Assembly (NCBI GenBank): GCA_023251875.1 | Contig: JAHEXY010000004.1 | Coordinates: 130,359 to 194,358, forward strand | Reading direction: 5' to 3' | Source of the DNA: Bacteroidota bacterium | GTDB taxonomy: Bacteria > Bacteroidota > Bacteroidia > JAHEXY01 | Length of the DNA stretch: 64,000 nt | In this document: piece after piece, positions 4,934-62,935 of the stretch | How positions within the stretch are numbered: position 1 is the stretch's first letter | Layout of the letters: every line of letters begins with the position of its first letter | Translations under genes and position numbers: made by a program | The notes under the pieces: model-generated | Database searches by the model: none | The model's input: only the letters and a program-made list of their open reading frames with translations | Told to the model about the DNA's origin: nothing

Positions 4934-7109
4934 TAGGTTTATAAGTTTACTATGCATGCTTGGTATAAGCTTTTCTAGCTTCTCCCAAACCGATTCTACC
5001 TTTTTTCTCCCCAATCAACATCCCGAAATAATGCTTTCAGGATTTGGTTTTAATAATTCAGGCGGAAGTGATGTTTTTAATCATTGTGCCGGTATTATAA
5101 GCGATGGAACAAGATTATTTTTGTGCGACAGGTGGAATAATAGAGTATTGATTTGGAATACAATTCCTCAAACTAATCTTGAGCCCGATCTTGTACTTGG
5201 ACAAAAAGATTTTAATACAAACGATCCGGGATCTAAATTAGATCAATTTGATTGGCCTGGTGCTGTTTCTGTTTCAAGTGATGGTAAATTGCTTATTGCT
5301 GATACCTATAACAATCGGGTTTTAGTTTGGAATACTATTCCAACAACAAATGGGCAGGCTGCTGATTTTGCAATAACTGATAATATATCATGGCCCTGGG
5401 GGGTGTGGAGCAACGGAAAAAAACTAATTATTGTTAATACCCAGCAAACGCAATCAAATGCAATAATGGTATGGAATACTTTTCCTGCAAGCAGTTCTGT
5501 AAAATATGATTTCAAACTTACTGCCGGTGGAGATTTGGGAACACCTAGAACAATTACAACAAATGGTGATTTTTTAATGATAGGTGATCACAATTCAAAA
5601 AATGCGAATGGGCCTCAGGGAAATTATGTATGGACAACATTTCCGCAATCAGATGTTGTTTATGATTATTTTACTACTGACCCTTATGATAAAAATTATG
5701 CTTGGCTACAAGGAACTGTTACTTCAGATAGTATGCTAATTGCATTGGGCCGCCAACTGCATATTTGGAAAACACTTCCAAACACATCTTCTCAAAAACC
5801 GGATATTTCATTAAGCTATAATTTTAATGGGGGAGATGGTTCAGATGTGGCAGTAGCCGGAGGAAAAGTATTTGTCTCTTGCATGAATGACAATCGTGTT
5901 TTTGTTTTTAATAGTATCCCAACATCTTCTTCGGCCCAGCCCGATTTTGTATTGGGAAGTCCTGCCATTGACACAAACACACTTACAATAAATCATTTTA
6001 TTACCAATCCGGTTCCTGTTTCTGATGGTGAGCATTTATTTGTTTCTTCTGATTTTGATAAAACCTTAAGCATCTGGGAAAATTTACCGGATTCAAGTGC
6101 AACCCCTCCCGATACAATTATTAATCTTCAAGAAGCCCCTTGGGATAACGAACTCCATGGCGATACACTTGTTTTGGCTGGAAAAAAAACAATTTTTATT
6201 TGGAAATCACTTCCCTTAAACGGCCAGCAGCCCGATTTTACCCTTCAAGATCATATAGGATCCATTTATTTTAATGAAATTAGAGGTGTAGCTTTTGATG
6301 ATAGCTATTTTTACATTGCTGATAATAATACGGTATATGTATGGAGTGGCTTTCCAACTACCTCTTCTTATGCTGATCCTATGCTAACATTACATTTTGC
6401 AAGTGTTATGAAATTATGCAGTGATGAAGGTTATTTATCAATAACCGAAATGGAAGCAGCTCCTCCCAAAGCAGTGCTTTATAAAATTTCTAATTTTCCA
6501 AATGATACCAATCCTTATAAAACCATTGAAGGGCAGAATGGATATTATTTTAATTTACCTATGCACACCATTACTTCAAACGGGCATTTATTTTTAGCAA
6601 ACTCTATTTTTAATGTTGTGTATGCTTGGAAAGACATCAATGATGCCGGAGATTTTTCAAAAGTAATTGTATTGGGCAGCGATACAACAATAGAAACCAT
6701 TCCTTGCATTGGTGATAGTACATTATTTTGGCCTGCAAGTTTAAGTTTTGATGGCAAACACCTTTGGGTAGGAGAATTTAAATTTTCAGGAAGGATTTTA
6801 AGATACACCATTCCCTCTGAATTAACGAGCATTAAGAAAATAAATACAAAAACTAATTTAGTTTCAAATATTAAAATATATCCCAATCCTGTAAGTGATC
6901 AAATAAACATAAATTTTCCGTCTATAATAAATGAAAGTAAAGTTGAAATTTCTCTTTTCGATTACACGGGAAAATGCGTAAAAAAATATGAAACTGGTCT
7001 TTTTAAAACTTTCTCTATTGATGTGAATAGCTTTGCATCCGGACTATATCAATTAAGAATTTCAAATACAAATACTGTATTTAGCCAAAAAATCTTAATT
7101 ATTAGGTAA
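4881..7109 (+). CDS. Secreted NHL-repeat beta-propeller protein with T9SS type-A C-terminal sorting domain
   Basis: Repeated NNRVLxWNTIP-type units (DRWNNRVLIWNTIP, DTYNNRVLVWNTIP, MNDNRVFVFNSIP); C-terminus IYPNPVSDQININ...GLYQLRI typical of the Por secretion tail. First 25 codons are encoded by the right REP repeat, so the true start may be the ATG at 4956. Confidence 0.65.
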   Translation: MAKANSIFQSILISAINGRFISLLCMLGISFSSFSQTDSTFFLPNQHPEIMLSGFGFNNSGGSDVFNHCAGIISDGTRLFLCDRWNNRVLIWNTIPQTNLEPDLVLGQKDFNTNDPGSKLDQFDWPGAVSVSSDGKLLIADTYNNRVLVWNTIPTTNGQAADFAITDNISWPWGVWSNGKKLIIVNTQQTQSNAIMVWNTFPASSSVKYDFKLTAGGDLGTPRTITTNGDFLMIGDHNSKNANGPQGNYVWTTFPQSDVVYDYFTTDPYDKNYAWLQGTVTSDSMLIALGRQLHIWKTLPNTSSQKPDISLSYNFNGGDGSDVAVAGGKVFVSCMNDNRVFVFNSIPTSSSAQPDFVLGSPAIDTNTLTINHFITNPVPVSDGEHLFVSSDFDKTLSIWENLPDSSATPPDTIINLQEAPWDNELHGDTLVLAGKKTIFIWKSLPLNGQQPDFTLQDHIGSIYFNEIRGVAFDDSYFYIADNNTVYVWSGFPTTSSYADPMLTLHFASVMKLCSDEGYLSITEMEAAPPKAVLYKISNFPNDTNPYKTIEGQNGYYFNLPMHTITSNGHLFLANSIFNVVYAWKDINDAGDFSKVIVLGSDTTIETIPCIGDSTLFWPASLSFDGKHLWVGEFKFSGRILRYTIPSELTSIKKINTKTNLVSNIKIYPNPVSDQININFPSIINESKVEISLFDYTGKCVKKYETGLFKTFSIDVNSFASGLYQLRISNTNTVFSQKILIIR

Positions 7110-25697: not shown

Positions 25698-25809
25698 CAA
25701 CACCCATTTGAATAAAGGACGGATTTTAATTATTTTAGTATTTTGAGATGAAAGCAATTTATTAAATACTATTTTTGCATTAATGGTGTTTACTAAATTA
25801 TTTATTAAA

Positions 25810-25895
25810 GGCTTTCTAAAAATTACAATTTTTGTGTCCCTCTCTTTGAGAGGGATTAAGGGAGAGAACATAAATAAAATAATTTTTAGAAAGCC
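25810..25895. repeat. MITE-like element (~85 bp) with 15-bp terminal inverted repeats GGCTTTCTAAAAATT / AATTTTTAGAAAGCC and internal CCCTCTC hairpin
   Basis: TIRs read directly; core TCCCTCTCTTTGAGAGGGATTAAGGGAGAGA; homologous copies at 33954-34032 and 55910-55992. Confidence 0.6.
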
Positions 25896-25953
25896 CTTAA
25901 TAATTACGAAGATAAATTATTAAAAAGAGGCTAACAAAATAATCAGTCGTATC

Positions 25954-33909: not shown

Positions 33910-33953
33910 TTTCTCAATTATAACATTGAACTTAAAAACGTTGAACGACTAAT

Positions 33954-34032
33954 GGCTTTTAAAAAATTTATTATTTATTTCCTCTCCCTACCCTCTCAAA
34001 GAGAGGGACAAAAATGATAATTTTTAAAAGCC
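33954..34032. repeat. MITE-like element copy (TIRs GGCTTTTAAAAAATTT / AATTTTTAAAAGCC; core CCTCTCCCTACCCTCTCAAAGAGAGGGA)
   Basis: Same architecture as 25810-25895 and 55910-55992, in inverted orientation relative to the 25810 copy. Confidence 0.6.
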
Positions 34033-34033
34033 A

Positions 34034-35020
34034 TTATTCGTTAAGATTTTTCCAAAGTAAATCTTTTAATTCAGTAATACCCTTATCTGTAACTGCTGAA
34101 ATAAATACATGAGGAATATCCGGTAATTTTTTAGTGAGTTTTTTTACTGCTTTGGCATCAATCAAATCTAGTTTTGTGATTGCCAATATTCTTTTCTTAT
34201 CAAGCAACTCGGGATTATACTGTTCCAGCTCATTTACCAAAACCTCATATTCATGTTTGATATTTTCAGAATCAGCGGCCACCATAAAAAGTAAAATGGA
34301 GTTTCTTTCAATATGTCTCAGAAATCGTAAGCCTAAACCCTTGCCTTCATGAGCTCCTTCTATAATGCCCGGTATATCGGCCATTACAAAAGACTGAAAA
34401 TCTCTATAGGCTACAATTCCTAAATTAGGAACCAATGTAGTAAACGGGTAATTACCAATTTTAGGTTTTGCTGCAGACACTACCGAAAGTAAAGTTGATT
34501 TACCTGCATTTGGAAATCCCACCAATCCCACATCAGCCAATATTTTTAATTCTAGAACTTTCCAAGATTCTTGGCCTTCTTCTCCTGGTTGCGCATAACG
34601 CGGAGTTTGTTTAGTAGGCGTTTTAAAATGAGCATTACCCATGCCTCCTTTTCCTCCAGATACTAAAATTCTTTCTTCTCCTTCCTCTGTAATTTCAAAA
34701 AGTATTTTTCCGGTTTCAAAATCTTTAGCAACTGTACCAAGTGGTACTTCAAGAATTACATCTTCACCGGTTCGTCCGGTACACATACCGCCTTGCCCAT
34801 TTTTCCCATCTTGGGCAACCACATGTTTACGGTATTTAAGATGAATAAGCGTCCAAAGTTGTTTGTTACCTTTTAAAATTACACTTCCTCCTTTACCTCC
34901 ATCCCCACCATCGGGCCCACCTTGAGCGGTAAATTTATCTCTATACAAATGAACAGAACCTGCCCCACCCTTTCCGGACTTACAATTTATTTTTACGTAA
35001 TCTACAAAGTTTGATTCCAC
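34034..35020 (-). CDS. obg: GTPase Obg
   Basis: Obg fold N-terminus [21 protein letters not shown], glycine-rich [15 protein letters not shown]-binding motifs GFPNAGKST. The longest ORF starts at a TTG at 35071 inside a repeated leader motif; the GTG at 35020 gives a typical Obg N-terminus ([11 protein letters not shown]). Confidence 0.85.
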
Positions 35021-37150: not shown

Positions 37151-37367
37151 TCATCGTGCCAGAAATTAAGCCCTCTCCCTCAATCCCTCTCCCAAAAGGA
37201 GAGAGAAGAAAGCCTTGAGCCTAGTATATATTATAACTTCTTAGACTTACTATTTTAAAAACATAAAAAAAATGAATTTTAAAAAATCAGACTTTCAAAT
37301 CAAAGTACATTCTTTAATCAGAGAACTTCCCTTCTCCCTTCGGGAGAAGGGCTAGGGATGAGGGCTT

Positions 37368-39626: not shown

Positions 39627-39710
39627 TTACTTCTTTTTAGAAGTTTTCTTAGCAGCAGTTTTTTTAGCAGCTGGTTTTTTAGCTGCAGCTTTTTTTGTTG
39701 TCTTTGCCAT
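39627..39710 (-). CDS. Candidate small lysine/alanine-rich basic protein (27 aa, histone-H1-like tail composition)
   Basis: Own translation of the minus strand gives MAKTTKKAAAKKPAAKKTAAKKTSKKK; a hairpin (AAAGCACG...CGTGCTTT) followed by TTGTGTTTTT lies immediately downstream on the same strand; not present in the ORF track because of length. Confidence 0.3.
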   Translation of the reverse strand: MAKTTKKAAAKKPAAKKTAAKKTSKKK

Positions 39711-43153: not shown

Positions 43154-43198
43154 TTTGCGGTGATAAAGTTTCAAAATTTGAAACTTTATCACCGCAAA
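43154..43198. promoter_or_regulatory. 45-bp perfect palindrome containing the same core as the higBA-upstream palindrome
   Basis: TTTGCGGTGATAAAGTTTCAAA-A-TTTGAAACTTTATCACCGCAAA between convergent genes; core identical to 18555-18581. Confidence 0.45.
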
Positions 43199-45253: not shown

Positions 45254-45310
45254 ATATTTTATTTTTTACAGTTAAATATTTTTACCTCTTAATTTATCCG
45301 CGCTTCTATT

Positions 45311-45558
45311 TTGCTCAGCCAATGTCATTTTTTAAGCCCGAAAGGGCTTGAATTTTAATAACCTCTAGTGCAACTAGAGGAGAAATAAACTATTTTTTTA
45401 CAACCCTGAAAGGGTTGAATGCACTAGAAATTAAACCCTTTCAGGGTTACACTAATCTTGACTTACTTCCCCCAATTTTATTGGGGGTTATTAAAATTCA
45501 AGTCCTTCGGACTTTTTTTCCTCAGCATGGCAACACTCAAAACAGGCTGAGTCGAAGG
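45311..45558. repeat. Hairpin-rich ~250-bp repeat element (paralogue of 54292-54565)
   Basis: Shares GCTCAGC...ATGTC(A/G)TTTTTTAAGCC(C/T)GAAAGG(G)CTT and a terminal GGCTGAGTCGAAGG with the 54.3-kb element; internal stem-loops AAGCCCGAAAGGGCTT, CCTCTAGTGCAACTAGAGG, AACCCTGAAAGGGTT, ACCCTTTCAGGGT, CCCCCAATTTTATTGGGGG, AGTCCTTCGGACT. Confidence 0.6.
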
Positions 45559-45574
45559 ATATACAAATGCGTTT

Positions 45575-51721: not shown

Positions 51722-52099
51722 CTATGCAACCTTTAATTTAAATTTTGTATAAATTTCATCCGCTATTAAACCATGCAAAGAAATATCTGCTTGCGGTATT
51801 TCTTTCCACAAGATGCCTGTACCCATATTTTCATAATTATTCAGTTGCTCCATATTTGCATTTGCTAGACCAAGTATATCTGTAATATTTTTTTCAATTA
51901 TTGTTCCATTATTTAAAACAAACAGAATTCTATTTACATTTTTTTGAATCACTAAATGTGTAATTTCAAGTTTATTTGATTCAATTGCATCATCAATGGG
52001 ATCTATATCTTTAGAATAAAATTGAACCGTTTCATTTTCATTTTTAGTTTCAAGATTTTTCAAAAAATCTTCAGTTTCTTTATTTATTAAAGGTTTCAT
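51722..52099 (-). CDS. DUF2442-like protein (partner of DUF4160)
   Basis: 125 aa; C-terminal W...ADISLHGL segment resembling DUF2442; overlaps the upstream DUF4160 ORF by 20 bp. Confidence 0.55.
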   Translation of the reverse strand: MKPLINKETEDFLKNLETKNENETVQFYSKDIDPIDDAIESNKLEITHLVIQKNVNRILFVLNNGTIIEKNITDILGLANANMEQLNNYENMGTGILWKEIPQADISLHGLIADEIYTKFKLKVA

Positions 52100-52316
52100 T
52101 CCATTTGTTTATTAAAAGTTCATAATTTAAAATCACTATTTCTACTATTTGTTTAAGTTCTCTTGGTTTAAAATTACTGGCTTTTATAATTTTAATATCT
52201 GGCACTAAAATAATTTTAGCTTTACCACTAGCCTTTGCCACATGAATATGAATAGGTTCATGTTCATTCATAAAAAAATAAAATCTATATCCATTTATTT
52301 CAAATATTGTTGGCAT
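52080..52316 (-). CDS. DUF4160-family small protein
   Basis: 78 aa; MPTIFEINGYRFYFFMNEHEPIHIHV matches the DUF4160 signature (MP.I....G.RF.FY.NDH.P.H.HV). Confidence 0.7.
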   Translation of the reverse strand: MPTIFEINGYRFYFFMNEHEPIHIHVAKASGKAKIILVPDIKIIKASNFKPRELKQIVEIVILNYELLINKWNETFNK

Positions 52317-52331
52317 ATATATATAACAAAT

Positions 52332-54239
52332 TTAAATAGTTTCCGGCAAGGTATACTTTCTTCCTTTATTCTGCTCTTTTAAATATTGCATAAGCGGTGC
52401 AAAATAATCCATAATGGCTTTAGCACTCATTTCAGAACCTAATTCATCTTTTAAAACCAATCTCCAATCTTTAGAAGCTCCTGTACTCATTACTTCTTTT
52501 AAAAAGTTTCCAATTTCTTTGTTGCCGTAATAATTGGTTGAATGCGGATCTTGATGTAAAATATCTTTTGCGATGTGCTCATGAAATTGAAAAAGCAACA
52601 CATTAGCAATAGCATAATCATAATACTGTGCAGGATCATCATTAATATGTGTTTTAGAAGCTGCATCACAAAATTCTTCACCTCTTGTTGATGGAGGAAC
52701 AATACCTTGGTATTTTAATGCTAATTCCCACCATTTTTTGTTATACTGATCTACAGGTAAATTTTGTGCATATAAATTGTATTCGAACTCCGTCATAACA
52801 CCTGCAGCCCATGGAAGAACAACAACATAACTCAAAGCTTCTTTTAAAAGTTTTTGTGTATCATCTGTTTTTGTATTGGGATCTATTAATCCAAAATTGG
52901 CTAAGAAAGGTTTTTGCATAGAGGCTAATCCCATCATGGTTCCGAAAGCTTCATGAAAACCACGATTAGCGCCTTCTCTTAAAATAATAGGTACTTGTGG
53001 TGTTGAATAAGAACGGTAGTAATAAATATGTCCTAATTCATGTAGTGCAGTTTCCCACCAACGAGAATTAGCTTCAATGCTCATTAATGAACGTATATCA
53101 TCATCATGATTAATATGCCAAGCCGAAGCATGGTTATTTTTTTTGTAGCCTGCATCAAGCGGAGCGGGATACAAACTTGATTTTTCCCAGAAAGATTTTG
53201 GTAATGAATCAAAACCTAGGCTTACATAAAAACCTTCTGATTGTTTAATAATCCACTCCGGAGTTTTTTCTTTTAAAGCAGAATCAACGTTTAATCCCTT
53301 TACATCAACCAAATCATCCCATGATTGCCCCCAGCGATTAGGTAGCCAATGCGCAGGAAGCATATCCGGTACAGGTTGCTTGTATTTATTTGCCAATTCA
53401 TATCGGGCCCAGGTATGCAATTCACGAAAAAGCGGCCAAATGTCTTTTACCATATCATGGCAAACGTTCATCATTTCATCAGTAGTCATATTATAATCAG
53501 AAACCTGATACGAGAAAAAATCTTTATAACCCAATGCTTGCACCGACTGGTTTCTCAATTGTTGCAAATTTGCAAGCCCCGGTTTTAAACCTACGCCCAC
53601 TTCTTTACTGGCTTCCCAAGCTTTTAATCTTTCATTTAAATTATTAGATGCACCAAGAATAGAATCAATTTGGTTTACACTTACAGATTTGCCATCAATT
53701 TTAAAATCGTAACCAAATAGTTTTTCTGTTTGCTCATTATTGGCTTTAATAAGAGATTTTATTACGTCTTTTATGGTTTCAGGTCCACCGGCTGCAGAAT
53801 ACAAAACAGCATTGAGTTGACGAACCTCTATATCACTCAACTCATCTTTATGTTTTAAATATTCCGTTGCTTTATTAATATTATAGGCACTTCCACTAAA
53901 ATGATTATAAGCTTCACTTGCTACTTGAGCATTGTGTTTGGCAACAGTATCTCCTTCAACAATATGTGTATTCAATGCCCAATCTGCTTCTGATGATGCA
54001 TTGAGCAATTGTTTCATGGTATCATTATAAGCAACTAGATATTGATCTACTTCTTCTTTAATACTTTTTTGTTGGGTAGATGTTCCGCAAGCTGCAAATA
54101 AACAAATAGAGCTTAGAATTAAATAGTTTTTAAAATGCATACTATAAATTTTATGGTTAGAAATAAGAATGCAAAAGTAGGGAAAAGAGATGAAGCTTGA
54201 AAGGAGTATGAGAATATGAAAATCCGTTTTGCTAATCAA
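52332..54239 (-). CDS. M2-family (angiotensin-converting-enzyme-like) peptidyl-dipeptidase with signal peptide
   Basis: HELGHIYYY...LREGANRGFHEAFGTMMGL parallels the ACE zinc-binding HEMGHIQYY...LRRGANPGFHEAIGDVLAL region. Confidence 0.8.
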   Translation of the reverse strand: MISKTDFHILILLSSFISFPYFCILISNHKIYSMHFKNYLILSSICLFAACGTSTQQKSIKEEVDQYLVAYNDTMKQLLNASSEADWALNTHIVEGDTVAKHNAQVASEAYNHFSGSAYNINKATEYLKHKDELSDIEVRQLNAVLYSAAGGPETIKDVIKSLIKANNEQTEKLFGYDFKIDGKSVSVNQIDSILGASNNLNERLKAWEASKEVGVGLKPGLANLQQLRNQSVQALGYKDFFSYQVSDYNMTTDEMMNVCHDMVKDIWPLFRELHTWARYELANKYKQPVPDMLPAHWLPNRWGQSWDDLVDVKGLNVDSALKEKTPEWIIKQSEGFYVSLGFDSLPKSFWEKSSLYPAPLDAGYKKNNHASAWHINHDDDIRSLMSIEANSRWWETALHELGHIYYYRSYSTPQVPIILREGANRGFHEAFGTMMGLASMQKPFLANFGLIDPNTKTDDTQKLLKEALSYVVVLPWAAGVMTEFEYNLYAQNLPVDQYNKKWWELALKYQGIVPPSTRGEEFCDAASKTHINDDPAQYYDYAIANVLLFQFHEHIAKDILHQDPHSTNYYGNKEIGNFLKEVMSTGASKDWRLVLKDELGSEMSAKAIMDYFAPLMQYLKEQNKGRKYTLPETI

Positions 54240-54291
54240 ACCTCTACGAGCAATGTCATTAAGTTAAGGAGAAAATTAAGCCAACGCGCAT

Positions 54292-54565
54292 GCTTCGACT
54301 TCGCTCAGCACGACCTTTGCTCGGCTGTCATGCTGAGCGAACTATGTCGTTTTTTAAGCCTGAAAGGCTTTAATATCAATAGCCTCCGATTTTATCGGAG
54401 GTAAGAGTTTGATTGTTGATTATTGAACCCCTACGGGGTTCAACTGATTTGTTTGCATTTCCCCCTGATTTCATCAGAGGTTATTCAAATTTAATCCCTT
54501 CGGGATTGGGTGAACAACAAAGCATTACTCCTTAAAAAACGACATTGGCTGAGCGAAGTCGAAGC
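54292..54565. repeat. 274-bp hairpin-rich element bounded by perfect 18-bp inverted repeats (MITE-like or structured RNA)
   Basis: GCTTCGACTTCGCTCAGC (54292-54309) and its exact reverse complement (54548-54565); nested GTCGTTTTTT / AAAAAACGAC; internal stem-loops AAGCCTGAAAGGCTT, CCTCCGATTTTATCGGAGG, GAACCCCTACGGGGTTC, ATCCCTTCGGGAT. Confidence 0.65.
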
Positions 54566-54942
54566 GTCCAAAAAAAATCCTTTTGGTACCTTAAATAATG
54601 ACATTACTCTACGAGGTATGAATACGAACGGCCTTGCGTTTCTACAATACTATATGCCCTACAGGCAATTAATTAAAAATACGACATAGGCGTTAAAGTT
54701 TTGTAGAAGGCTATAGGTTGGGCATTAACACTTCCCGTAGCAATTTCTGTAGCGGCTGTTGTAATAAAACTTTACCATCATAAAGATATTATTGCAGATT
54801 TTAAAATATTTGCCATTCCAATCTTAATTGGAATTTGTTTAGCCGTACCATTAATGTATGTTACCTACAGAAACTTATATGAAAAAAACATGGATGAAGT
54901 AAAATCTATGTTAGAAGATTTAAAAGAATAATATTACAAAAT

Positions 54943-55103
54943 GGCTTCGGGAGCCTCAGCCATCGATGTAATTGGCAACTGAGGCTCTCGAAGTCACAAA
55001 AAACAAATCCTTCAAAGTTTAAAAAACCTTGAAGGATTTTTATAGAACTTGGCTTCGAGAACCTCAGCCAACATATACAAGGGTGCCTGAGGTTCCCGAA
55101 GGC
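54943..55103. repeat. Two paralogous ~52-nt hairpins separated by a perfect terminator-like hairpin
   Basis: Unit 1 54943-54994 and unit 2 55051-55103 (GGCTTCG(G/A)GA(G/A)CCTCAGCC ... CTGAGG(C/T)TC(T/C)CGAAG), with a G-C to A-T compensatory change in the stem; middle hairpin AAATCCTTCAAAGTTTAAAAAACCTTGAAGGATTT (55005-55039). Confidence 0.6.
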
Positions 55104-55112
55104 ACAACTAGA

Positions 55113-55751
55113 TTAATGTTTTCCGTTACCATTCATTTTCATACCCGCATTTACCAAAGCCATTTCAGGCTTATAACGTAAATGCGTTACTGATTTATAT
55201 TGTTTGCCTGTACTAGTAAAAGTGCGAAGTTCTTTTTGTGTTTCTTTATCCACAAATTTCATAATGGGTTGAGCAACCGTTTCTGATTTTAAAATAATTT
55301 TCTTTAGTTTTTTATCCCAGTCTTTATAATACGTATCAAAATCAGTTATACGTAAACGTTTACGGCAATTTTCATATCCGCAAGAAAGATCCATTTCATA
55401 TTCAACATTAAACAAACCGTATTCATCGGTAATTTGTTCTCCCGGAAAAATATCTCGGGTGGCAATTTCAAAACCATAGCCGGTACTCATGGTATTGCAA
55501 TTGCAGCAGTGATTTACATATTTAGCAATATCCCAACTAATGATTCGGTTTCCTTTATCATCAATAAAAGAATATTTGTCAATGATTTCTCGGTAATTGT
55601 TATCCAGAATAAGATAATTATCGGGTGAGATACTCACCTCTAATTGATCTTTTACATATACTATTGTTCCTTCAGGTATTAGATTGGTGGCGAAAACTCC
55701 GTATCCAACTGTGGAGTTCACCCATCGCAGTTCAGTGTCTGGATGTATCAT
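55113..55751 (-). CDS. SET-domain protein (putative protein-lysine methyltransferase)
   Basis: SET signature motifs YVNHCCNCN (NHxCxPN-like) and EQITDEYG (ELxxDYG-like), followed by a Cys-rich post-SET segment CGYENCRKRL. Confidence 0.7.
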   Translation of the reverse strand: MIHPDTELRWVNSTVGYGVFATNLIPEGTIVYVKDQLEVSISPDNYLILDNNYREIIDKYSFIDDKGNRIISWDIAKYVNHCCNCNTMSTGYGFEIATRDIFPGEQITDEYGLFNVEYEMDLSCGYENCRKRLRITDFDTYYKDWDKKLKKIILKSETVAQPIMKFVDKETQKELRTFTSTGKQYKSVTHLRYKPEMALVNAGMKMNGNGKH

Positions 55752-55909
55752 GACGGCTTAATGAGAAGATTTAAATGGTTATTAAATAATGTTGATTTGT
55801 AATTGAATTCTAAAATATGAATTATATATATAAACGACTGCAATTTACGAGCTATTTTTAAATAATTGTTAATTTTTTAGGTTAAATGTTAAGATCAAAA
55901 AGAATTTAA

Positions 55910-55992
55910 GGCTTTCAAAAAATTATATTTTTCTATTCCTCTCCCTTAATCCCTCTCTAAAGAGGGATACAAATTGTAATTTTTAAAAAGCC
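55910..55992. repeat. MITE-like element copy (TIRs GGCTTTCAAAAAATT / AATTTTTAAAAAGCC; core CCTCTCCCTTAATCCCTCTCTAAAGAGGGA)
   Basis: Third copy of the ~85-bp element seen at 25810-25895 and 33954-34032. Confidence 0.6.
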
Positions 55993-56008
55993 TTAAATAG
56001 ATTACAAC

Positions 56009-57442
56009 TTAATTCCATCCCCCGCCTAATGCTTTATATAAATTGGTTATTGAATTGTATTGGCGTTTTTTTGTTTCTATTAATTCTAATTTTGAATCCA
56101 AGGCTTCACGTTGTACCATTAACACTTCTAGATAGTCTGCCTTTCCCGACTTAAAAAGATCATTCGATATATCAATGGAATTTGTTAATGCATCAACCGC
56201 TTTCATCTTTTGATCGTATAACTTTTGTAAGTTAGAGATGTTAGACATTTCATTTGAAACTTCTACATATCCGTTCAGAATTGTTTTTTGATAATCGTAC
56301 ATTGCCTCCAATTGATAAGCTTTCGCTTTATTAAATTCTGCTTTGATGGCGCTTCGATTGATTAGGGGGGCTGTTAAATCTCCCAATATAGAATAAATCA
56401 TAGATTCAGGTGTAATAAATAGATAGGAGGGTTTAAAACCTTGAAAACCCAATGCACCCGTAATACTTATAGACGGATAAAATTCTGCACGCGCAACTTC
56501 TACATCACATTTAGTAGCATACAATTCTAACTCTGCTTGTTTGATATCAGGCCGATTCTTTAACAATTGAGAAGGAATACCTGCTTTTACCTGCATAGGC
56601 AATTGATCCTTAAAAGCTGTTGCATCACGAGTAATGGGTTGAGGATATCTTCCTAATAAAAAATTCAATTTATTTTCGCTTTCAAGAATCTGTTGCTGTA
56701 TATCGTATTCCATACTTTGCGTATTGAACACTTCTGCTTCAAATTGTTTAACGGCTAATTCCGTTGCCAATGAGGCCTCTTTTTGAATTCTTACAATTTC
56801 CAAAGCATTTTTTTTCAACTGAATCATTTGTTGAATGTATTCCAGCTCATTATCTAGCGAAAGCAATTCATAATACGTGTTAGCAACTTCTGCAACCAGA
56901 TTGGTAAGTACAAAATTTTTACCTTCAATGGAACCTAAATACCTTGAAAAAGCAGCCTTTTTAGCATTGCGCATCTTAGCCCATACATCAACCTCCCAAC
57001 TCGTTTGCAAACCCAGGTAAAAATCACTGAGATTTTCGGGTACCTTTTTTCCAGGGATGATATCAGCAGAAGCATCTCCTGCTCCTTGACTCGTATATAG
57101 ACCCACTTTTTCTAGTCCTGCTCCTACTCCAGCTGAAACGGTTGGGAATAATAAACCTTTCCTAAATTTTACATCACTTTTTGCAATTTCAATTTCTTGA
57201 AGGGTTATCAAAAGCTCCACATTATTTTTTAAAGCAGTATCGATAAGTGCAACCAAATACTTATCAGCAAAAAAATCTTTCCAATTTATCTCTGCCGAAT
57301 TGATGGAGTCTTTTGAGGTAGTATAGGATGACGGTAAGGATTTAACCTCGGTTTGTTGCATAGGTGCAATGGTTTTACAACTTGCATAAACTATGCATAT
57401 CAATAAAACACCAATCCTTTTATTTTTTCTAAATAAGTTCAT
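56009..57442 (-). CDS. TolC/NodT-family outer-membrane efflux protein
   Basis: Two tandem coiled-coil/beta-barrel repeats typical of outer-membrane factors; lipoprotein-like signal (VYASCK); last gene of the RND operon. Confidence 0.8.
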   Translation of the reverse strand: MNLFRKNKRIGVLLICIVYASCKTIAPMQQTEVKSLPSSYTTSKDSINSAEINWKDFFADKYLVALIDTALKNNVELLITLQEIEIAKSDVKFRKGLLFPTVSAGVGAGLEKVGLYTSQGAGDASADIIPGKKVPENLSDFYLGLQTSWEVDVWAKMRNAKKAAFSRYLGSIEGKNFVLTNLVAEVANTYYELLSLDNELEYIQQMIQLKKNALEIVRIQKEASLATELAVKQFEAEVFNTQSMEYDIQQQILESENKLNFLLGRYPQPITRDATAFKDQLPMQVKAGIPSQLLKNRPDIKQAELELYATKCDVEVARAEFYPSISITGALGFQGFKPSYLFITPESMIYSILGDLTAPLINRSAIKAEFNKAKAYQLEAMYDYQKTILNGYVEVSNEMSNISNLQKLYDQKMKAVDALTNSIDISNDLFKSGKADYLEVLMVQREALDSKLELIETKKRQYNSITNLYKALGGGWN

Positions 57443-57470
57443 GTTTACTATTTGTAATTATAAATTGGTA

Positions 57471-60400
57471 TTATTCATCAATTTCTTCAGTTAAAGGATT
57501 TTCTTCTTCATTTTCAACTATAGGATGTTTTTCAGAAATGCTTGCAAAAATGAAATACAGTCCGGGAATGAGCATTACACCAAATAGAGTTCCAAACAAC
57601 ATTCCTCCTGCTGCTGCAGATCCAATGGTTCTATTACCAATTGCACCAGGACCTGTTGCAAGCATAAGAGGAATTAATCCGGCAATAAAAGCAAAGGATG
57701 TCATTAAGATTGGACGCAACCTCACTGCCGCACCTTCAATTGCTGCTTTAAAAGGAGTCATTCCTTCGCGGTGTTTCTGAACAGCAAATTCAACAATCAA
57801 TACGGCATTCTTGCCTAACAATCCAATTAACATTACCATCGATACCTGTGCATAAATATTGTTTTCAAGGCCCAACATTTTAAGAAAGAAAAAAGCCCCA
57901 AAAATTCCGGTTGGTAGTGACAGGATTACAGGAAAGGGTAAAATAAAACTTTCGTACTGAGCAGCTAGAACGAGGTACACAAAAATCAAACAAATGAGAA
58001 AAATATAAATAGCCTCATTTCCTCTTCCTACTTCATCTTTTGATATTCCGGCCCAGTCAATTCCAAAACCTCTTGGTAATTTTATTTTTGCTTCTTCCTG
58101 AATAGCAGCAATAGCTGCTCCACTACTATAACCAGGTGCTGCACTACCACTAATTTCAGAAGAATTATACATATTGTGTCGGGTAATTTCTTCCATTCCG
58201 TATACTTTATCAACCGTCATAAATGCTGAATAGGGAACCATTTCATCCTTATCATTTTTCACATAAAGTTTCAAAATATCCTGAGGCTGTTCTCTGTATT
58301 GAGGCAATGCCTGCACCATTACTTTGTACTGGCGGTCGTACTTAATAAAGTTGGTTTCATAATTACTTCCAATAAGTGTTGACAAGTTATTCATTGCATT
58401 ATCGATGGTTACTCCTTTTTGCTGCGCTTTATCATTATCAATATTTAGCATGTACTGAGGAAAGCTTGCGCTGTAAAAAGTAAAAACAGATGAAAGCTCA
58501 GGTCTTTTATTTAATTCTTTTACAAAGTCCTTATTCACCGTTTCCATTTTTTTGTAATCACCACTTCCACCTTTATCTAATAAACGCAATTCAAACCCAC
58601 CTGCAGCACCATAGCCTGGAACTGCAGGAGGAGGGAAAAACTCAATATTGGCACCTTTAATATCTTTTGTTTTTTCTTCTAGCTCTTCCATTACTTCAGC
58701 CGTTGAATGTTTTCTTTCATCCCAACTCTTGAGGTTAATAAGACAGGTTCCGGAATTAGCTCCTTCACCTTCTGATAAAATTTCAAAACCCGCCAAAGAT
58801 GAAACAGATTTTATGTCTTCTAATTCTTCTGCAACTTTTTGAATCTGAAAAGCAACAGCATTAGTTCTTTCTAATGTTGAACCCGGAGGCGTATTAATAA
58901 TAGCATAAAAAACGCCTTGATCTTCATTGGGAATAAATCCGGATGGAATAACAGTATTTAAGCCCCAACTGGCGATGCAGAAAATGATCAAGGCTAAAAA
59001 TGTAACCGCTCTTTTATTTACAATTACATTCAATACTTTTTTATACTTGCCTAATATGCGACCAAACCAGTTATTGAAAGCATCCAGAAAACGATTGATT
59101 GGCGTTTTTCTTTTTTCAATTCCGTGCATATTTTTTAACATGATGGCACACAATGCAGGAGTTAATGTTAAAGCAATAACACCCGATAAAATAATGGACG
59201 TTGCCATGGTTACAGAAAACTGTCGGTAGAAGATTCCTACAGGTCCGGTCATAAATGCAACAGGAATAAATACTGCAGCCATAACTAAAGTAATAGCAAT
59301 GATGGCCCCACTTATTTCGTGCATGGCTAATTCTGTTGCTGCTTTTGGATCTAGATTTTTTTCTTCCATTTTTGCGTGAACGGCTTCTACCACAACAATT
59401 GCATTATCCACCACAATGCCAATAGCAAGCACTAGCGCAAACAAAGTGATCATGTTAAGCGTGATTCCAAAAAATTGCATGAAGAAGAATGTTCCTACTA
59501 AAGATACAGGCACGGCAATAGCGAGGATAAGGGTAGAACGCCAGTCTCCTAAAAATACAAATACTACTAAGCCCACTAATAAAAATGCTTCTATTAATGT
59601 GTGAATTACTTTATCGATAGAAGCGTCTAAGAATTTGGATACATCATAACTTATTTCATAATCCATTCCTTTAGGAAATGAATTTTCTTTTATTTCTTCC
59701 ATTTTCTTTTTAATCTTCTTGATCACATCGCTTGCATTGCTGCCATACGATTGTTTAACCATTATCGCAGCAGCCGGTTTTCCATTGAGCGTTGAATAGA
59801 TATCATAATAGGCAGTACCGAATTCAACTTGAGCAACATCTTTAATCCGAAGTATTTCTCCATCAGGACTCGATCTCAAAATAATATTCTCGTATTGCTC
59901 CTTGGTAGTATACCTACCGGGATATTTTAATACATATTCAAAAGCTTGTGATTTTTTTCCGGAGCTTTCACCTGTTTTTCCCGGTGCAGCTTCTAAACTC
60001 TGTTCGTCTAATGCTTTTAAAACATCATCTGCTGAAATTTTATAGGCTAACATTCTGTCCGGTTTCAACCAAATACGCATCGCATATTCTCTGTCTCCAA
60101 GAATATCAGCAAATCCAACACCATCAACACTTTTTAATTCAGAAAGTATATTTATATCAGCAAAGTTGTAAATAAAATTTACATCAGAACCCTTGTCTTT
60201 ACTATACAAATTAATATACATAAGCATATTTGATTCTTCTCTGCTGATTTTAATACCTTCTCTAACAACAATGGGAGGTAATTTATTGGTTACTGCTGCT
60301 ACCCTATTTTGAATATTAACAGCAGCAATGTTAGGATCTGTTCCTAACTCAAAAACTACGGTTATTAAACATTCTCCATCGTTACCGGCATCAGAGGCAA

Positions 60401-60632
60401 TATATTTTACTCCGGGTGTTCCATTTATAGCACGTTCCAACGGAATAACCACGGCTTTAATCATCAGCTCTCCATTTGCACCCGGATACTCTGCATTGAT
60501 ATTTACTTTAGGAGGAGATATGGATGGAAATTGAGTAACGGGTAATTTTATTAATGCTAAAATACCCAACAGGGAAATTATCAAGGAAATAACAATAGCT
60601 AATACCGGTCTGTGTATGATTTTTTTGAACAT
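57471..60632 (-). CDS. RND-family efflux transporter permease (AcrB/CzcA-type)
   Basis: 1053 aa with 12 TM helices in a 1+5/1+5 arrangement and two large periplasmic loops. Confidence 0.9.
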   Translation of the reverse strand: MFKKIIHRPVLAIVISLIISLLGILALIKLPVTQFPSISPPKVNINAEYPGANGELMIKAVVIPLERAINGTPGVKYIASDAGNDGECLITVVFELGTDPNIAAVNIQNRVAAVTNKLPPIVVREGIKISREESNMLMYINLYSKDKGSDVNFIYNFADINILSELKSVDGVGFADILGDREYAMRIWLKPDRMLAYKISADDVLKALDEQSLEAAPGKTGESSGKKSQAFEYVLKYPGRYTTKEQYENIILRSSPDGEILRIKDVAQVEFGTAYYDIYSTLNGKPAAAIMVKQSYGSNASDVIKKIKKKMEEIKENSFPKGMDYEISYDVSKFLDASIDKVIHTLIEAFLLVGLVVFVFLGDWRSTLILAIAVPVSLVGTFFFMQFFGITLNMITLFALVLAIGIVVDNAIVVVEAVHAKMEEKNLDPKAATELAMHEISGAIIAITLVMAAVFIPVAFMTGPVGIFYRQFSVTMATSIILSGVIALTLTPALCAIMLKNMHGIEKRKTPINRFLDAFNNWFGRILGKYKKVLNVIVNKRAVTFLALIIFCIASWGLNTVIPSGFIPNEDQGVFYAIINTPPGSTLERTNAVAFQIQKVAEELEDIKSVSSLAGFEILSEGEGANSGTCLINLKSWDERKHSTAEVMEELEEKTKDIKGANIEFFPPPAVPGYGAAGGFELRLLDKGGSGDYKKMETVNKDFVKELNKRPELSSVFTFYSASFPQYMLNIDNDKAQQKGVTIDNAMNNLSTLIGSNYETNFIKYDRQYKVMVQALPQYREQPQDILKLYVKNDKDEMVPYSAFMTVDKVYGMEEITRHNMYNSSEISGSAAPGYSSGAAIAAIQEEAKIKLPRGFGIDWAGISKDEVGRGNEAIYIFLICLIFVYLVLAAQYESFILPFPVILSLPTGIFGAFFFLKMLGLENNIYAQVSMVMLIGLLGKNAVLIVEFAVQKHREGMTPFKAAIEGAAVRLRPILMTSFAFIAGLIPLMLATGPGAIGNRTIGSAAAGGMLFGTLFGVMLIPGLYFIFASISEKHPIVENEEENPLTEEIDE

Positions 60633-60655
60633 AATTTTATTGTTTGATATTAAAT

Positions 60656-61762
60656 TTATTGTTCAATTAGCTGTAAATGGTCAATTACTTGCTTGGCCGG
60701 AATAAATTCTGAATGAATCGTATCATCCTCTTTTACACTTTGAAGTCCTTCGAGCAGAATTTTATCCTTTTCTGAAAGATCGTTTTCAATAACGTATATA
60801 TTCGATAATTTTTGTTTGACGGAGATATTTTTTGATTTCACAACATTGTTCTGATCCACCCCATATACATAGATTTTATCTTGTATCTCAAATGTTGCTT
60901 TTTGAGGAATAATTAAAGCATTTTTGATATCCATAATTAATCGCACTTTTCCTGTTTCACCATGTTTCAATAAAAGATCAGGATTAGGAAATTTGGCTCT
61001 GAATGCAATACTTCCCACTTCTTTATCAAATTCTCCTTCGATGGTTTCAATGGTACCTTTATATTTATGTTCTTGGCCATTTGCTAAAATGAGTGCAACA
61101 TTGTTTTTATTATCTCCTGCATTGCGAGCCTTATAATCTAAATACTCTGCTTCAGAAACATTAAAATAAGCGTAAACTTCTTTATTGTTTGAAAGAGAAG
61201 TCAACAATGAGCCATCATCTATAAGACTTCCAACTTTAAAATGAATTCTATCAATAATTCCTTCGAAAGGAGCCCTTACTTCAGTATAAGAAAGATGTAA
61301 TTCTGCTATTGCTTGTTCGGCTTTTGCCTGATCCAGCTTTGCTACCGCCAATGCCAATTCGGTTTGAGAAACAATATTTTTATCGGCAAGAATTTTTGTA
61401 TTCTGCATTTCAAGCTCAGCCGTTTTAGTTTCTGCTTTGGCTTTTGCCAATTCAGCCTCATATTCTCTTGGCCTTATTGTAAAAAGAAGTTGACCTTCAT
61501 TTACATGCTGCCCTTCATCAACATTTATGGTTTCTATGTATCCATCAACCTTTGCACGTATCTCAATATTTTGTAACGATTGTATCTCGGCAACATATTC
61601 CTTTGTATAAGAAGTATCAATTAAAATTGGATTCGTAACAGGAAATTTACCCTCTTCACTTTTTTCTTCTTGTTTTGAAGTACAAGCGGTAAAATTAACT
61701 ATGGCATATATGCTCAATAGTAATGCTGTTTTGTTCATTGGATATGAATATTTGAGAAACAA
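60656..61762 (-). CDS. Efflux RND periplasmic adaptor subunit (membrane fusion protein)
   Basis: Lipoyl/coiled-coil hairpin (AELAKAKAETKTAELEMQNTKILADK), beta-barrel segments; upstream of the RND pump on the same strand. Confidence 0.8.
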   Translation of the reverse strand: MFLKYSYPMNKTALLLSIYAIVNFTACTSKQEEKSEEGKFPVTNPILIDTSYTKEYVAEIQSLQNIEIRAKVDGYIETINVDEGQHVNEGQLLFTIRPREYEAELAKAKAETKTAELEMQNTKILADKNIVSQTELALAVAKLDQAKAEQAIAELHLSYTEVRAPFEGIIDRIHFKVGSLIDDGSLLTSLSNNKEVYAYFNVSEAEYLDYKARNAGDNKNNVALILANGQEHKYKGTIETIEGEFDKEVGSIAFRAKFPNPDLLLKHGETGKVRLIMDIKNALIIPQKATFEIQDKIYVYGVDQNNVVKSKNISVKQKLSNIYVIENDLSEKDKILLEGLQSVKEDDTIHSEFIPAKQVIDHLQLIEQ

Positions 61763-61828
61763 AAATTATTGATTAATTAATTTTGCATGAGAAAAAAACT
61801 ATTTCCACACAGTATTAACAAAGCAAAA

Positions 61829-62191
61829 TCAGAGTCTAAATACTCTTAGGGAAATAAAATAAGAAGGGAGAAGGTGAAATATAAAGCTGGTATACGAGGG
61901 CTTTTTAAAAAGGTCATCAAAAAAATTAGTTGATGCAAACAAAAAAGCTTTGAAAGCTGTTTTTGCACTAGAAAAATTTTTTCTTTCAGAATCATTTACG
62001 TCTTCATCTTCGATATCAATTAGAAATTCATCAAAAAGAAGTTTTTCGCCTTGTATATAATAATTAGGGTAAATCTCAGATTCCTGCTGAACAATTTCAA
62101 TATGATAAATAGATGTCGCCTTTAAGGCGCAAGAATATGTTGGATGAAAGAATACCAACACAATACTAAGGATGAAAAATATTTTTTTCAT
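61829..62191 (-). CDS. Hypothetical secreted/lipoprotein
   Basis: Signal peptide with Cys (HPTYSCAL); no assignable motif. Confidence 0.4.
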   Translation of the reverse strand: MKKIFFILSIVLVFFHPTYSCALKATSIYHIEIVQQESEIYPNYYIQGEKLLFDEFLIDIEDEDVNDSERKNFSSAKTAFKAFLFASTNFFDDLFKKPSYTSFIFHLLPSYFISLRVFRL

Positions 62192-62281: not shown

Positions 62282-62935
62282 TTAAGCAATAAGATAGCCA
62301 TCTTGCATAACCAATTTTCTATCAGCCATAGTTGCAAGCTCAGCATTGTGAGTTACAATTACGAAAGTTTGTTGAAATTTTTCTCTTAAGGAGAAAAATA
62401 AATCATGTAATTCTTTAGCATTTACCGAATCAAGATTACCTGAGGGTTCATCGGCTAAAATAACAGAAGGGGCATTTATTAATGAACGAGCAACTGCAAT
62501 ACGCTGTTGTTCACCACCCGATAATTGAGAGGGTTTGTGATGGGCTCGTGCTGATAAATTCAAATAACCCAATAATTCTTTTGCTTTTTCTTCGGTTTCC
62601 TTTTTATTTTTTTTAGCTATAAATGCAGGAATACAGATATTTTCAAGAGCTGTAAATTCTGGTAACAGATGATGAAATTGAAAAATAAAGCCAATGTGTT
62701 TGTTTCTAAAATCAGAAAGTTGATTGTCGTTTAATTTCTCAAGGCTAGTGTTGTTTATTTTTACAGAACCATGATCTGCTTTATCAAGGGTGCCTATTAT
62801 TTGCAACAATGTACTTTTGCCGGCACCTGATGCTCCCACAATAGAAACTACTTCAGCTTTTTTAATGCTTAAAGTAATTCCTTTCAGTACTTGAAGTGAG
62901 CCGTATGATTTGCTTATATTTTCTGCAGTAATCAT
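62282..62935 (-). CDS. ABC transporter ATP-binding protein (LolD/MacB-like ATPase)
   Basis: Walker [13 protein letters not shown] signature LSGGEQQR, Walker B ILADEP. Confidence 0.85.

Follow-up and report, generated by a model that had tools for sequence, protein, structure and literature searches.

SET domains are known above all from eukaryotes, and a gene for a stand-alone SET-domain protein in a bacterial genome therefore raises the question whether it was imported or belongs to the lineage in which it is found. We addressed this question for a 64,000-nt stretch of DNA from a Bacteroidota bacterium (GenBank assembly GCA_023251875.1, contig JAHEXY010000004.1, positions 130,359 to 194,358; hereafter the window, with all coordinates counted from its first letter). 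Here, a gene for a 212-amino acid (aa) SET protein lies between a long, repeat-filled intergenic region and a further repeat element, and a preliminary description of the DNA had regarded it as likely horizontally acquired. The analysis points the other way. The gene very probably encodes a stand-alone, native bacterial SET enzyme that has long been resident in this Bacteroidota lineage, and the elements beside it would be insertions resembling repetitive extragenic palindromic (REP) sequences or miniature inverted-repeat transposable elements (MITEs).

The SET-domain protein

The gene and the parts of its product are located as follows.

55113-55751, minus strand: SET-domain methyltransferase gene, 212 aa, ATG start, single-domain
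55416-55706, minus strand: SET catalytic core, residues 16-112 (Pfam)
55362-55388, minus strand: post-SET-like segment L-S-C124-G-Y-E-N-C129-R130, residues 122-130, aligned to ASH1L CKCGFEKCR
55140-55343, minus strand: family-specific C-terminal helical extension, residues 137-204, with conserved W145-D146 and Q161-P162-L163
55752-55896, minus strand: AT-rich 5' spacer, presumed promoter region of the SET gene, part-alignable with the upstream regions of two close relatives

The open reading frame (ORF) given in the preliminary description was recovered with exactly these coordinates, strand and ATG start, and the two SET motifs named there, YVNHCCNCN and EQITDEYG, are present at residues 78-86 and 105-112, followed by LSCGYENCR at 122-130. 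In the profile search PF00856 (SET) matched residues 16-112 over the full model (1-105) with 43.2 bits against a curated cutoff of 22.4 (E 5.9e-11). The core carries G16-Y-G18 of the S-adenosylmethionine (AdoMet) loop, W73-D74, N80-H81-C82-C83 and E105-Q-I-T-D-E-Y111, where Y111 is the catalytic tyrosine. When the sequences of the PDB were searched with phmmer, AKYVNHCC..NCN was aligned to ARFINHSCDPNCE of ASH1L, GEQITDEYG to GTELTYDYN and LSCGYENCRK to CKCGFEKCRG of the same protein. A profile made from 43 family members matched ASH1L/MLL in the PDB at E 1.5e-10 over residues 10-134, and the AlphaFold model, in which the SET beta-fold is present, was matched by Foldseek to ASH1L, MLL, NSD and SETD2 with probability 1.0, although the best eukaryotic matches in the PDB share only 20-24% identity with the protein. 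A SET domain with a post-SET-like Cys segment, as described before, is thus backed by profile, sequence and fold. The assignment is secure, and since the catalytic and cofactor-binding motifs are all intact, the enzyme is predicted to be active.

On reading the 212-aa sequence, which starts directly with MIHP, no signal peptide, C-terminal domain of the type IX secretion system (T9SS) or accessory targeting domain was found, and the protein is probably cytoplasmic. The identical gene was found in two independent assemblies (loci L001 and L002). In the 5' spacer there is no exact Bacteroidota -7 box, and promoter-like matches do not exceed the expectation from shuffled sequence.

Behind the post-SET-like segment the protein continues into a tail for which AlphaFold 2 predicts helices at residues 137-158, 162-166, 169-180, 188-191 and 195-204. 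The Foldseek alignments span only about 147 columns, no counterpart of the tail was found in solved SET structures, and Pfam gives nothing at the curated cutoff in this region, with sub-threshold matches at E 0.085 and 0.12. The tail is conserved across phyla, both in the 43-sequence alignment and in a set of 150 representatives of clusters at 50% identity.

A compact bacterial family

A word-indexed HMMER search with the window protein returned 1,676 clusters, formed at 90% identity, of which the best 120 all have 55-65% identity to it and lengths of 195-226 aa; the named members among them belong to Reichenbachiella, Wandonia, Neolewinella, Ekhidna, Saprospiraceae, Crocinitomicaceae and Cyclobacteriaceae. 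In an exhaustive phmmer search of 1.84 billion 50%-cluster representatives 88, 381 and 1056 matches were obtained at E<=1e-30, 1e-10 and 1e-3, respectively, mostly single-domain proteins of about 190-215 aa aligned from residue 1. A scan of 185,579 species genomes, one per species, found at least 276 loci, a lower bound as the scan was keyed on exact peptide patterns; with this limitation, the earlier statement that SET domains are sporadic in bacteria is broadly right. Identities in the scan are 50-63% for Bacteroidota and 42-54% for loci from Balneolaceae, Planctomycetota, Cyanobacteria, Gammaproteobacteria, Desulfobacterales, Nitrospinota, Nitrospiraceae, Turneriella, Acidobacteriota and Verrucomicrobiota. 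The viral contigs of IMG/VR hold only distant SET proteins (28-30% identity), which do not have the C-terminal tail.

The 43 aligned members span at least nine phyla, and M1, H3, P4, T6, G16, G18, W73, D74, N80, H81, C83, Y111, C124, C129, R130, W145, Q161 and P162 are invariant among them. Ten of these positions (G16, G18, W73, D74, N80, H81, Y111, C124, C129 and R130) are also kept in about 90% or more of the 150 representatives, a set that includes many fragments and in most of which the conserved positions are present. The family is under strong purifying conservation across phyla. It is compact, conserved and purely bacterial, consists of stand-alone proteins of about 195-215 aa, and has a clear signature: an invariant N-terminal M-x-H-P, then the SET core (GxG, WD, NHxC, catalytic Tyr), behind it the post-SET zinc-Cys cluster with an invariant Arg, and finally the helical tail with WD and QP. 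The analysis thereby delimits a highly conserved SET family that is annotated, uncharacterised and experimentally untouched. Cultured carriers exist in Reichenbachiella, Neolewinella, Wandonia and Phaeodactylibacter.

Residence of the SET gene in its lineage

In its composition the SET gene is ordinary. Its GC content is 0.341, compared to 0.323 +/- 0.027 for the genes of the window, and its GC content at third codon positions (GC3) is 0.272, where the adjacent genes of a resistance-nodulation-division (RND) efflux operon have 0.27-0.28. With a Karlin codon bias B of 0.281 it also lies close to the 0.267 +/- 0.045 of 22 genes of comparable length. In a neighbour-joining tree built from 50 members the window protein groups with its two close relatives, in a clade nested among Bacteroidota, and other phyla mostly form groups of their own; all closest homologues are bacterial.

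The two relatives are informative for the gene order as well. The genes needed for the comparison are the following.

52332-54140, minus strand: Peptidase_M2 (ACE-like, HExxH) lipoprotein gene, Pfam PF01401 E 1.2e-102, ancestral downstream neighbour of the SET gene
56009-57442, minus strand: OEP/TolC-like outer-membrane factor, last gene of the RND efflux operon (Pfam)
57471-60632: AcrB, RND efflux operon (Pfam)
60656-61762: HlyD, RND efflux operon (Pfam)
62282-62935: ABC ATPase, 82% identical to the SET-adjacent ATPase of locus L083

In L083, where the SET protein is 87% identical to that of the window, the ABC ATPase gene lies 138 nt upstream of SET, and downstream of SET the same terminator hairpin is found as in the window. 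In L084 (SET 79% identical) the SET gene is followed, after a plain AT-rich spacer of 35 nt, by a Peptidase_M2 gene whose product is 77% identical to that of 52332-54140. Since each flank of the SET gene is orthologous in one relative, the ancestral order would be ABC-ATPase - SET - M2, and in the simplest history insertions or rearrangements would later have taken place around a gene already resident. A comparison with relatives had been proposed in the preliminary description: the gene is present in both, and a universally conserved syntenic position was not found, as only one flank is shared with each. Near the SET gene there is no integrase or transposase; the neighbours are the RND pump genes, Peptidase_M2, a DUF4160/DUF2442 pair and Ddl. 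The 64-kb window contains no transfer RNA gene.

With ordinary composition, exclusively bacterial nearest relatives, partial synteny and no flanking mobility genes, the proposal of a likely horizontal acquisition is not supported as far as a recent event or an import from eukaryotes is meant. Ancient transfers between bacteria are possible and would explain the patchy distribution of the family. In the literature, bacterial SET genes in general are regarded as native and a eukaryotic origin is rejected (PMC3980110). If our reading is correct, this is one more case of a SET enzyme native to free-living bacteria, which adds little new and agrees with published reviews.

Some points detract from this reading. 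Within Bacteroidota the orders are intermixed in the tree, with a few sequences misplaced, so that transfers among bacteria are possible there. The synteny comes from two relatives with one orthologous flank each. As regards the enzyme, the NCBIfam scan gave no model for the SET protein, and literature searches yielded no paper on the family and no biochemically characterised homologue.

Cysteines of the post-SET segment

The canonical post-SET zinc site consists of the Cys of NHxC and the motif CxCx4C. In the window protein this motif is not found directly after the SET core, as its first Cys is replaced by L122, and the protein has C82 beside C83, plus C85 (NHCC-x-C). The remaining C124 and C129 belong, together with R130, to the invariant positions of the family. 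Of the 150 diverse representatives 81 show the pattern NH-S-C + CxCx4C. Where Cys122 is missing and C124 and C129 are present, C82 is found in 19 representatives, an extra Cys at 126 in eight and neither in four; C82 is rare where Cys122 is present (three cases). The pattern of the window protein, CC-x-C + Cx4C, is common to 175 of 200 closer relatives. Across residues 80-130 (55362-55514) the Cys positions covary throughout the family, with NH-x-C-x-C + CxCxxC as a third type and a count of mostly four.

This covariation suggests that a zinc ligand once located in the post-SET segment is now provided by the SET core. In the clade of the window protein the extra Cys at NHCC (C82, also C85) keeps the number of Cys at four or more and probably supplies the fourth ligand. 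The apparent relocation is of modest interest for the structural biology of SET domains, where it can be put to the test. In the AlphaFold 2 model the predicted local distance difference test (pLDDT) is below 50 around residues 78-80, i.e., at the NHCC motif itself, so that the model lends the swap no help and the proposal draws on the covariation of the sequences.

Predicted function and its alternatives

By sequence and fold the best matches of the window protein are ASH1L, MLL1-4/KMT2, NSD1-3 and SETD2, which share with it the SET fold, GxG, NHxC, the ...DY with the catalytic Tyr and a Cys cluster right after the core. In contrast to this SET2/Trithorax class, the window protein is a stand-alone protein of 212 aa without AWS/pre-SET or chromatin-reader domains, has L122 in place of the first post-SET Cys, NHCC-x-C and a helical tail of about 70 aa, and its host is a bacterium without histones. 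Because the nearest proteins are lysine methyltransferases that bear a post-SET segment, protein lysine is most likely the target by analogy. The enzyme would methylate the epsilon-amine of a lysine on an endogenous bacterial protein in an AdoMet-dependent manner, where the post-SET zinc cluster would close the lysine channel and the helical tail would serve to recognise the substrate. Prokaryotic SET lysine methyltransferases are likewise represented by Chlamydia NUE/cpnSET, Legionella LegAS4/RomA (PDB 8swi) and Methanosarcina mazei Go1-SET, of which cpnSET and Go1-SET act on histone-like or chromatin proteins of their own cells (PMC3980110). None of these is among the sequence-level PDB matches, and none is a close homologue.

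The gene neighbourhood of the family is conserved in a few orders. Immediately upstream of SET and on the same strand, Saprospirales and some members of the Cytophagales and Flavobacteriales have a prolyl 4-hydroxylase (P4H)-type 2-oxoglutarate (2OG)-dependent oxygenase gene (2OG-FeII_Oxy_3; 20 loci, with gaps of 4-94 nt in most; oxygenase-SET loci L007, L014, L017, L021-L023, L030-L032, L037, L042, L045-L047, L051, L063, L067, L070 and L076, around position 6000 of each). Downstream of SET these loci often have AstE/AspA-like and GSH-S/RimK-like ATP-grasp genes, and the oxygenase, SET and AstE/ATP-grasp genes may form a modification cassette. In Saprospirales and some Cytophagales, probable co-transcription of SET with the oxygenase, beside AstE-like and RimK/GSH-S genes, might point to writer/modifier chemistry on a shared cytoplasmic target, which could be a ribosomal, translation-factor or nucleoid protein. 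Inside the window there are no homologues of the 2OG-oxygenase, AstE or ATP-grasp neighbours.

A more far-reaching proposal can be made tentatively and is in our view rather doubtful: that the family is an endogenous protein-lysine methyltransferase working in a bacterial modification module, with the window clade as a 'zinc-ligand-swapped' post-SET variant, and, separately, that the repeat R2 of the spacer described below is a new structured RNA. The zinc-ligand covariation, the Saprospirales neighbourhood and R2 are the only leads of note.

Several observations count against the prediction of a protein-lysine methyltransferase as such. Among the commonest neighbour clusters, which were the ones profiled, no conserved neighbour was found outside the Saprospirales-type orders and there is no universal partner. 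The neighbours in those orders would fit peptide and small-molecule chemistry alike. Moreover, we infer the protein-lysine substrate from the resemblance to eukaryotic lysine methyltransferases, at the low identity given above.

An enzyme that methylates a small molecule or free amino acid, as N- or S-methyltransferase, instead of protein lysine is an unlikely alternative. The AstE/AspA-like deacylase, the GSH-S/RimK ATP-grasp ligase and the 2OG oxygenase found next to SET in other lineages, which are enzymes of amino acids or peptides, would suit it. The precedent is BurB (PDB 9l4t): in Burkholderia thailandensis this SET enzyme of small size acts as methionine S-methyltransferase on the free amino acid (PMC12542666). 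However, the sequence match of BurB to the window protein is limited to residues 80-134, and is weaker than the similarity to the SET2/TRX class described above; BurB does not have the WD/QP tail. It works in a DMSP (dimethylsulfoniopropionate)/malleicyprol cluster, and such neighbours were not seen for this family: no BurI/BurD/BurE-type genes occur among the recurrent neighbour clusters, of which the commonest were profiled. The suggestive neighbourhood is, in addition, conserved in a few orders only. A post-SET Cys cluster helps to form the lysine channel, and the family has this cluster as in the lysine-methylating ASH1L/MLL class. Protein lysine therefore stays the favoured target.

No Lys/Ala-rich small ORFs that could be candidate substrates were found near SET in 83 related loci. 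Elsewhere in the window, at 39627-39710 on the minus strand, there is a Lys/Ala-rich ORF of 27 aa, MAKTTKKAAAKKPAAKKTAAKKTSKKK, which is followed by a terminator-like hairpin recognised by eye. Its sequence is of histone-H1/Hc2-like low complexity (Pfam HC2 E 0.15, not significant), and it is conceivable as a substrate of lysine methylation.

The spacer between SET and Peptidase_M2

The intergenic region downstream of the SET gene had been described as about 900 bp long and filled with repeats, and this proved accurate. It measures 972 nt (54141-55112) if Peptidase_M2 starts at the ATG at 54140, and 873 nt if it starts at the TTG at 54239, where the longest M2 ORF begins. With the ATG the product carries a signal peptide of the lipoprotein type, and the start is in line with that of the orthologue. 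The window has 19 intergenic regions with a length of 100 nt or more, and this spacer is the longest and the most structured of them, with a minimum free energy (MFE) z-score of -14.4; the part at 54225-54700 has RNA MFE z-scores of -11.6 and -10.2 on the two strands. The hairpin elements reported before thus form structure far beyond chance. Other intergenic regions of the window are hairpin-rich too, several with z -6 to -8. From the SET gene towards M2 the spacer contains the following features.

55050-55104: R3 hairpin copy b, 21-bp stem, 8 nt past the SET stop
55005-55039, minus strand: terminator hairpin of the SET gene with 16-bp stem and T-run (terminator scan), kept in L083
54942-54996: R3 hairpin copy a, with a stem of 18 bp; the two copies flank the terminator
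54707-54931, plus strand: start-less frame, 74 codons and TAA, hydrophobic, with two transmembrane-like stretches
54640-54708: hairpin with 22-nt arms
54233-54624: R2, composite multi-hairpin element of 392 nt with nested inverted repeats

The terminator appears to be bidirectional, as on reading the sequence a T-run is seen on the plus strand too. Before M2 the promoter scan found the promoter-like stretch TTTGCA-16-TAAAAT, which overlaps a TAnnTTTG-type box.

The start-less frame is as described earlier, with no ATG, GTG or TTG until 24 codons before its end. A search of 5.8 billion proteins yielded no homologue, the only Pfam match is a weak one to 8xMP (E 0.039, below cutoff), and L084 has no such gene between SET and M2; the frame is probably a gene remnant or an orphan. 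We also considered whether ATG 54216 could have been joined in frame to it before R2 was present, which the length of R2 would fit (392 nt = 2 mod 3). This candidate was rejected as two stops are left at 54625-54706.

In L083 the terminator is present and both R3 copies are absent, and L084 has a plain 35-nt gap with none of the spacer material. The content of the spacer is therefore a lineage-specific insertion. Two R3 hairpins, the orphan frame and R2 would make up the approximately 940 extra nt between SET and M2. The locus shows how REP/MITE-like hairpins can come to separate the genes of a probable SET-M2 operon, with a terminator after SET and a candidate promoter before M2.

Repeat families R1, R2 and R3

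On its other side the SET gene is flanked by R1, the element that had been called MITE-like before.

55897-56006, plus strand: R1, dispersed MITE/REP-like element of about 100 nt, directly after the OEP/TolC-like stop, with inverted arms (55904-55998) of 28 nt, 86% complementary

Its arms and dispersed copies bear out that name. Further copies lie at 25798-25909 and 33938-34045, with a partial one at 37166-37233, and two of the three full copies are directly downstream of the stop codon of a gene. The arms enclose a CTCTCCCTTAATCCCTCTC hairpin core (CCCTCTC) and are kept complementary through paired changes between the copies. Against the Rfam family Whalefall-1 (RF01762) R1 reaches 29.7 bits (55936-55970) and, in the partial copy (37170-37207), 19.5 bits, both short of the gathering score of 37. 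The model's second hairpin has no counterpart, and 25798-25909 gives no match. The R1 core had no match in a scan of viral contigs.

In R2 outer inverted repeats of 29 nt (79%), 18 nt (100%) and 15 nt (100%) enclose five to six short GC-rich hairpins. A second copy at 45297-45562 is about 70% identical and has the opposite orientation relative to the co-directional flanking genes. Between the copies, which are 270-390 nt long, eight of 48 consensus pairs have changed on both sides and none is broken. The ends of R2 carry a REP-like 18-mer, GCTGAGCGAAGTCGAAGC, which was found in 51 viral or metagenome contigs of IMG/VR of high and low GC, often as inverted pairs and in REP-like palindromic contexts; none of these is a further R2. 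For the R2 24-mer GCTCAGCCAATGTCNTTTTTTAAG one metagenome scan gave no matches. The R3 motif was found three times where 0.01 matches are expected, and in viral contigs it occurs in five unrelated contexts.

Searches of Rfam, for the locus at E<=1 and for the whole window at the gathering thresholds, returned generic microRNA-hairpin matches and the sub-threshold Whalefall-1 only. R1 and R2 are small and non-coding, have terminal inverted repeats like MITEs and are dispersed, with three full copies and one partial copy of R1 and two copies of R2 in the 64-kb window. Clear target-site duplications were found neither at the R1 ends nor at the R3 insertion points relative to L083. No transposase, of the REP-associated tyrosine transposase (RAYT) or insertion sequence (IS) type, was noted among those ORFs of the window whose families were checked, most of the window ORFs being unannotated. 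We class R1, R2 and R3 as REP/MITE-like repeats, selfish or structural in nature, that build up between the genes throughout this genome: like REP sequences, bacterial interspersed mosaic elements (BIMEs) and MITEs, they are short, non-coding, intergenic, palindromic, multi-copy and variable between relatives. R2 differs from these in being unusually long and composite (392 nt, five to six nested hairpins) and in the compensatory changes between its copies.

These compensatory changes, at an overall identity of about 70%, could mean that R2 is a functional RNA and not selfish DNA, and to that extent they speak against our classification. A small RNA or a cis-regulator of Peptidase_M2 encoded in the R2-rich spacer would also account for the extreme folding z-scores and for the -7-box-like TACTTTTG between R2 and the M2 start. 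We nevertheless consider this improbable. Both strands fold equally well, as expected of DNA palindromes, and the only two copies are oppositely oriented relative to their flanking genes. Furthermore, R2 is absent from the orthologous junction of L084, its ends are a motif found in assorted IMG/VR contigs, Rfam offers no family beyond the generic microRNA models, and the metagenome scan for its 24-mer was empty. Among the hairpins elsewhere in the window is a perfect palindrome with a 21-bp stem, TTTGCGGTGATAAAGTTTCAAAATTTGAAACTTTATCACCGCAAA, at 43154-43198 in the 108-nt spacer of convergent genes (intergenic MFE z -7.1).

The repeats that bracket the SET gene would fit with its recent horizontal acquisition, ultimately from a eukaryote-like source, in a mobile context. 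The sporadic occurrence of the family in bacteria, the fact that each of the two closest relatives differs in one flank and a GC3 that is 1.7 SD above the window mean could be read in the same way. However, such an import is very unlikely. The flanking repeats, which show no relation to one another, are generic intergenic elements that recur at other places in the window, and no mobility genes are nearby. Each flank is conserved in a relative whose SET protein is 79-87% identical, and GC, GC3 and codon bias are indistinguishable from those of the adjacent RND genes. Close homologues at 55-65% identity are found across Bacteroidota, where the protein is nested in the tree, in contrast to the eukaryotic SET domains and the viral ones of IMG/VR, which are far more distant. 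The flanking repeats are ordinary insertions next to a resident bacterial gene, and the SET finding is real and fairly ordinary. A secreted effector that methylates histones in a eukaryotic host or in prey organisms, on the model of Chlamydia NUE and Legionella LegAS4/RomA, is hardly credible. Those effectors are secreted and have extra domains. On reading the sequence, the present protein shows none of the targeting signals looked for above, its context holds no secretion-system genes, and the family occurs in many phyla, in lineages that live free in the sea, in soil and in wastewater.

Other genes around the SET locus

Peptidase_M2, the angiotensin-converting-enzyme family, is a mainly eukaryotic family, too. 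On the other flank the RND operon (120-aa ORF, HlyD, AcrB and OEP/TolC; 56009-62191) lies between the ABC ATPase and SET genes, which in L083 (7212-8633) are 138 nt apart. The difference can be either an insertion in the window or a deletion in L083, and R1 is located at the SET-side junction.

Just downstream of M2 an overlapping pair of genes for a DUF4160 protein (78 aa) and a DUF2442 protein (125 aa) occupies 51722-52316 on the minus strand. With its small overlapping genes the pair looks like a toxin-antitoxin system, and at the same place L084 has a module of a helix-turn-helix (HTH) gene and HipA.

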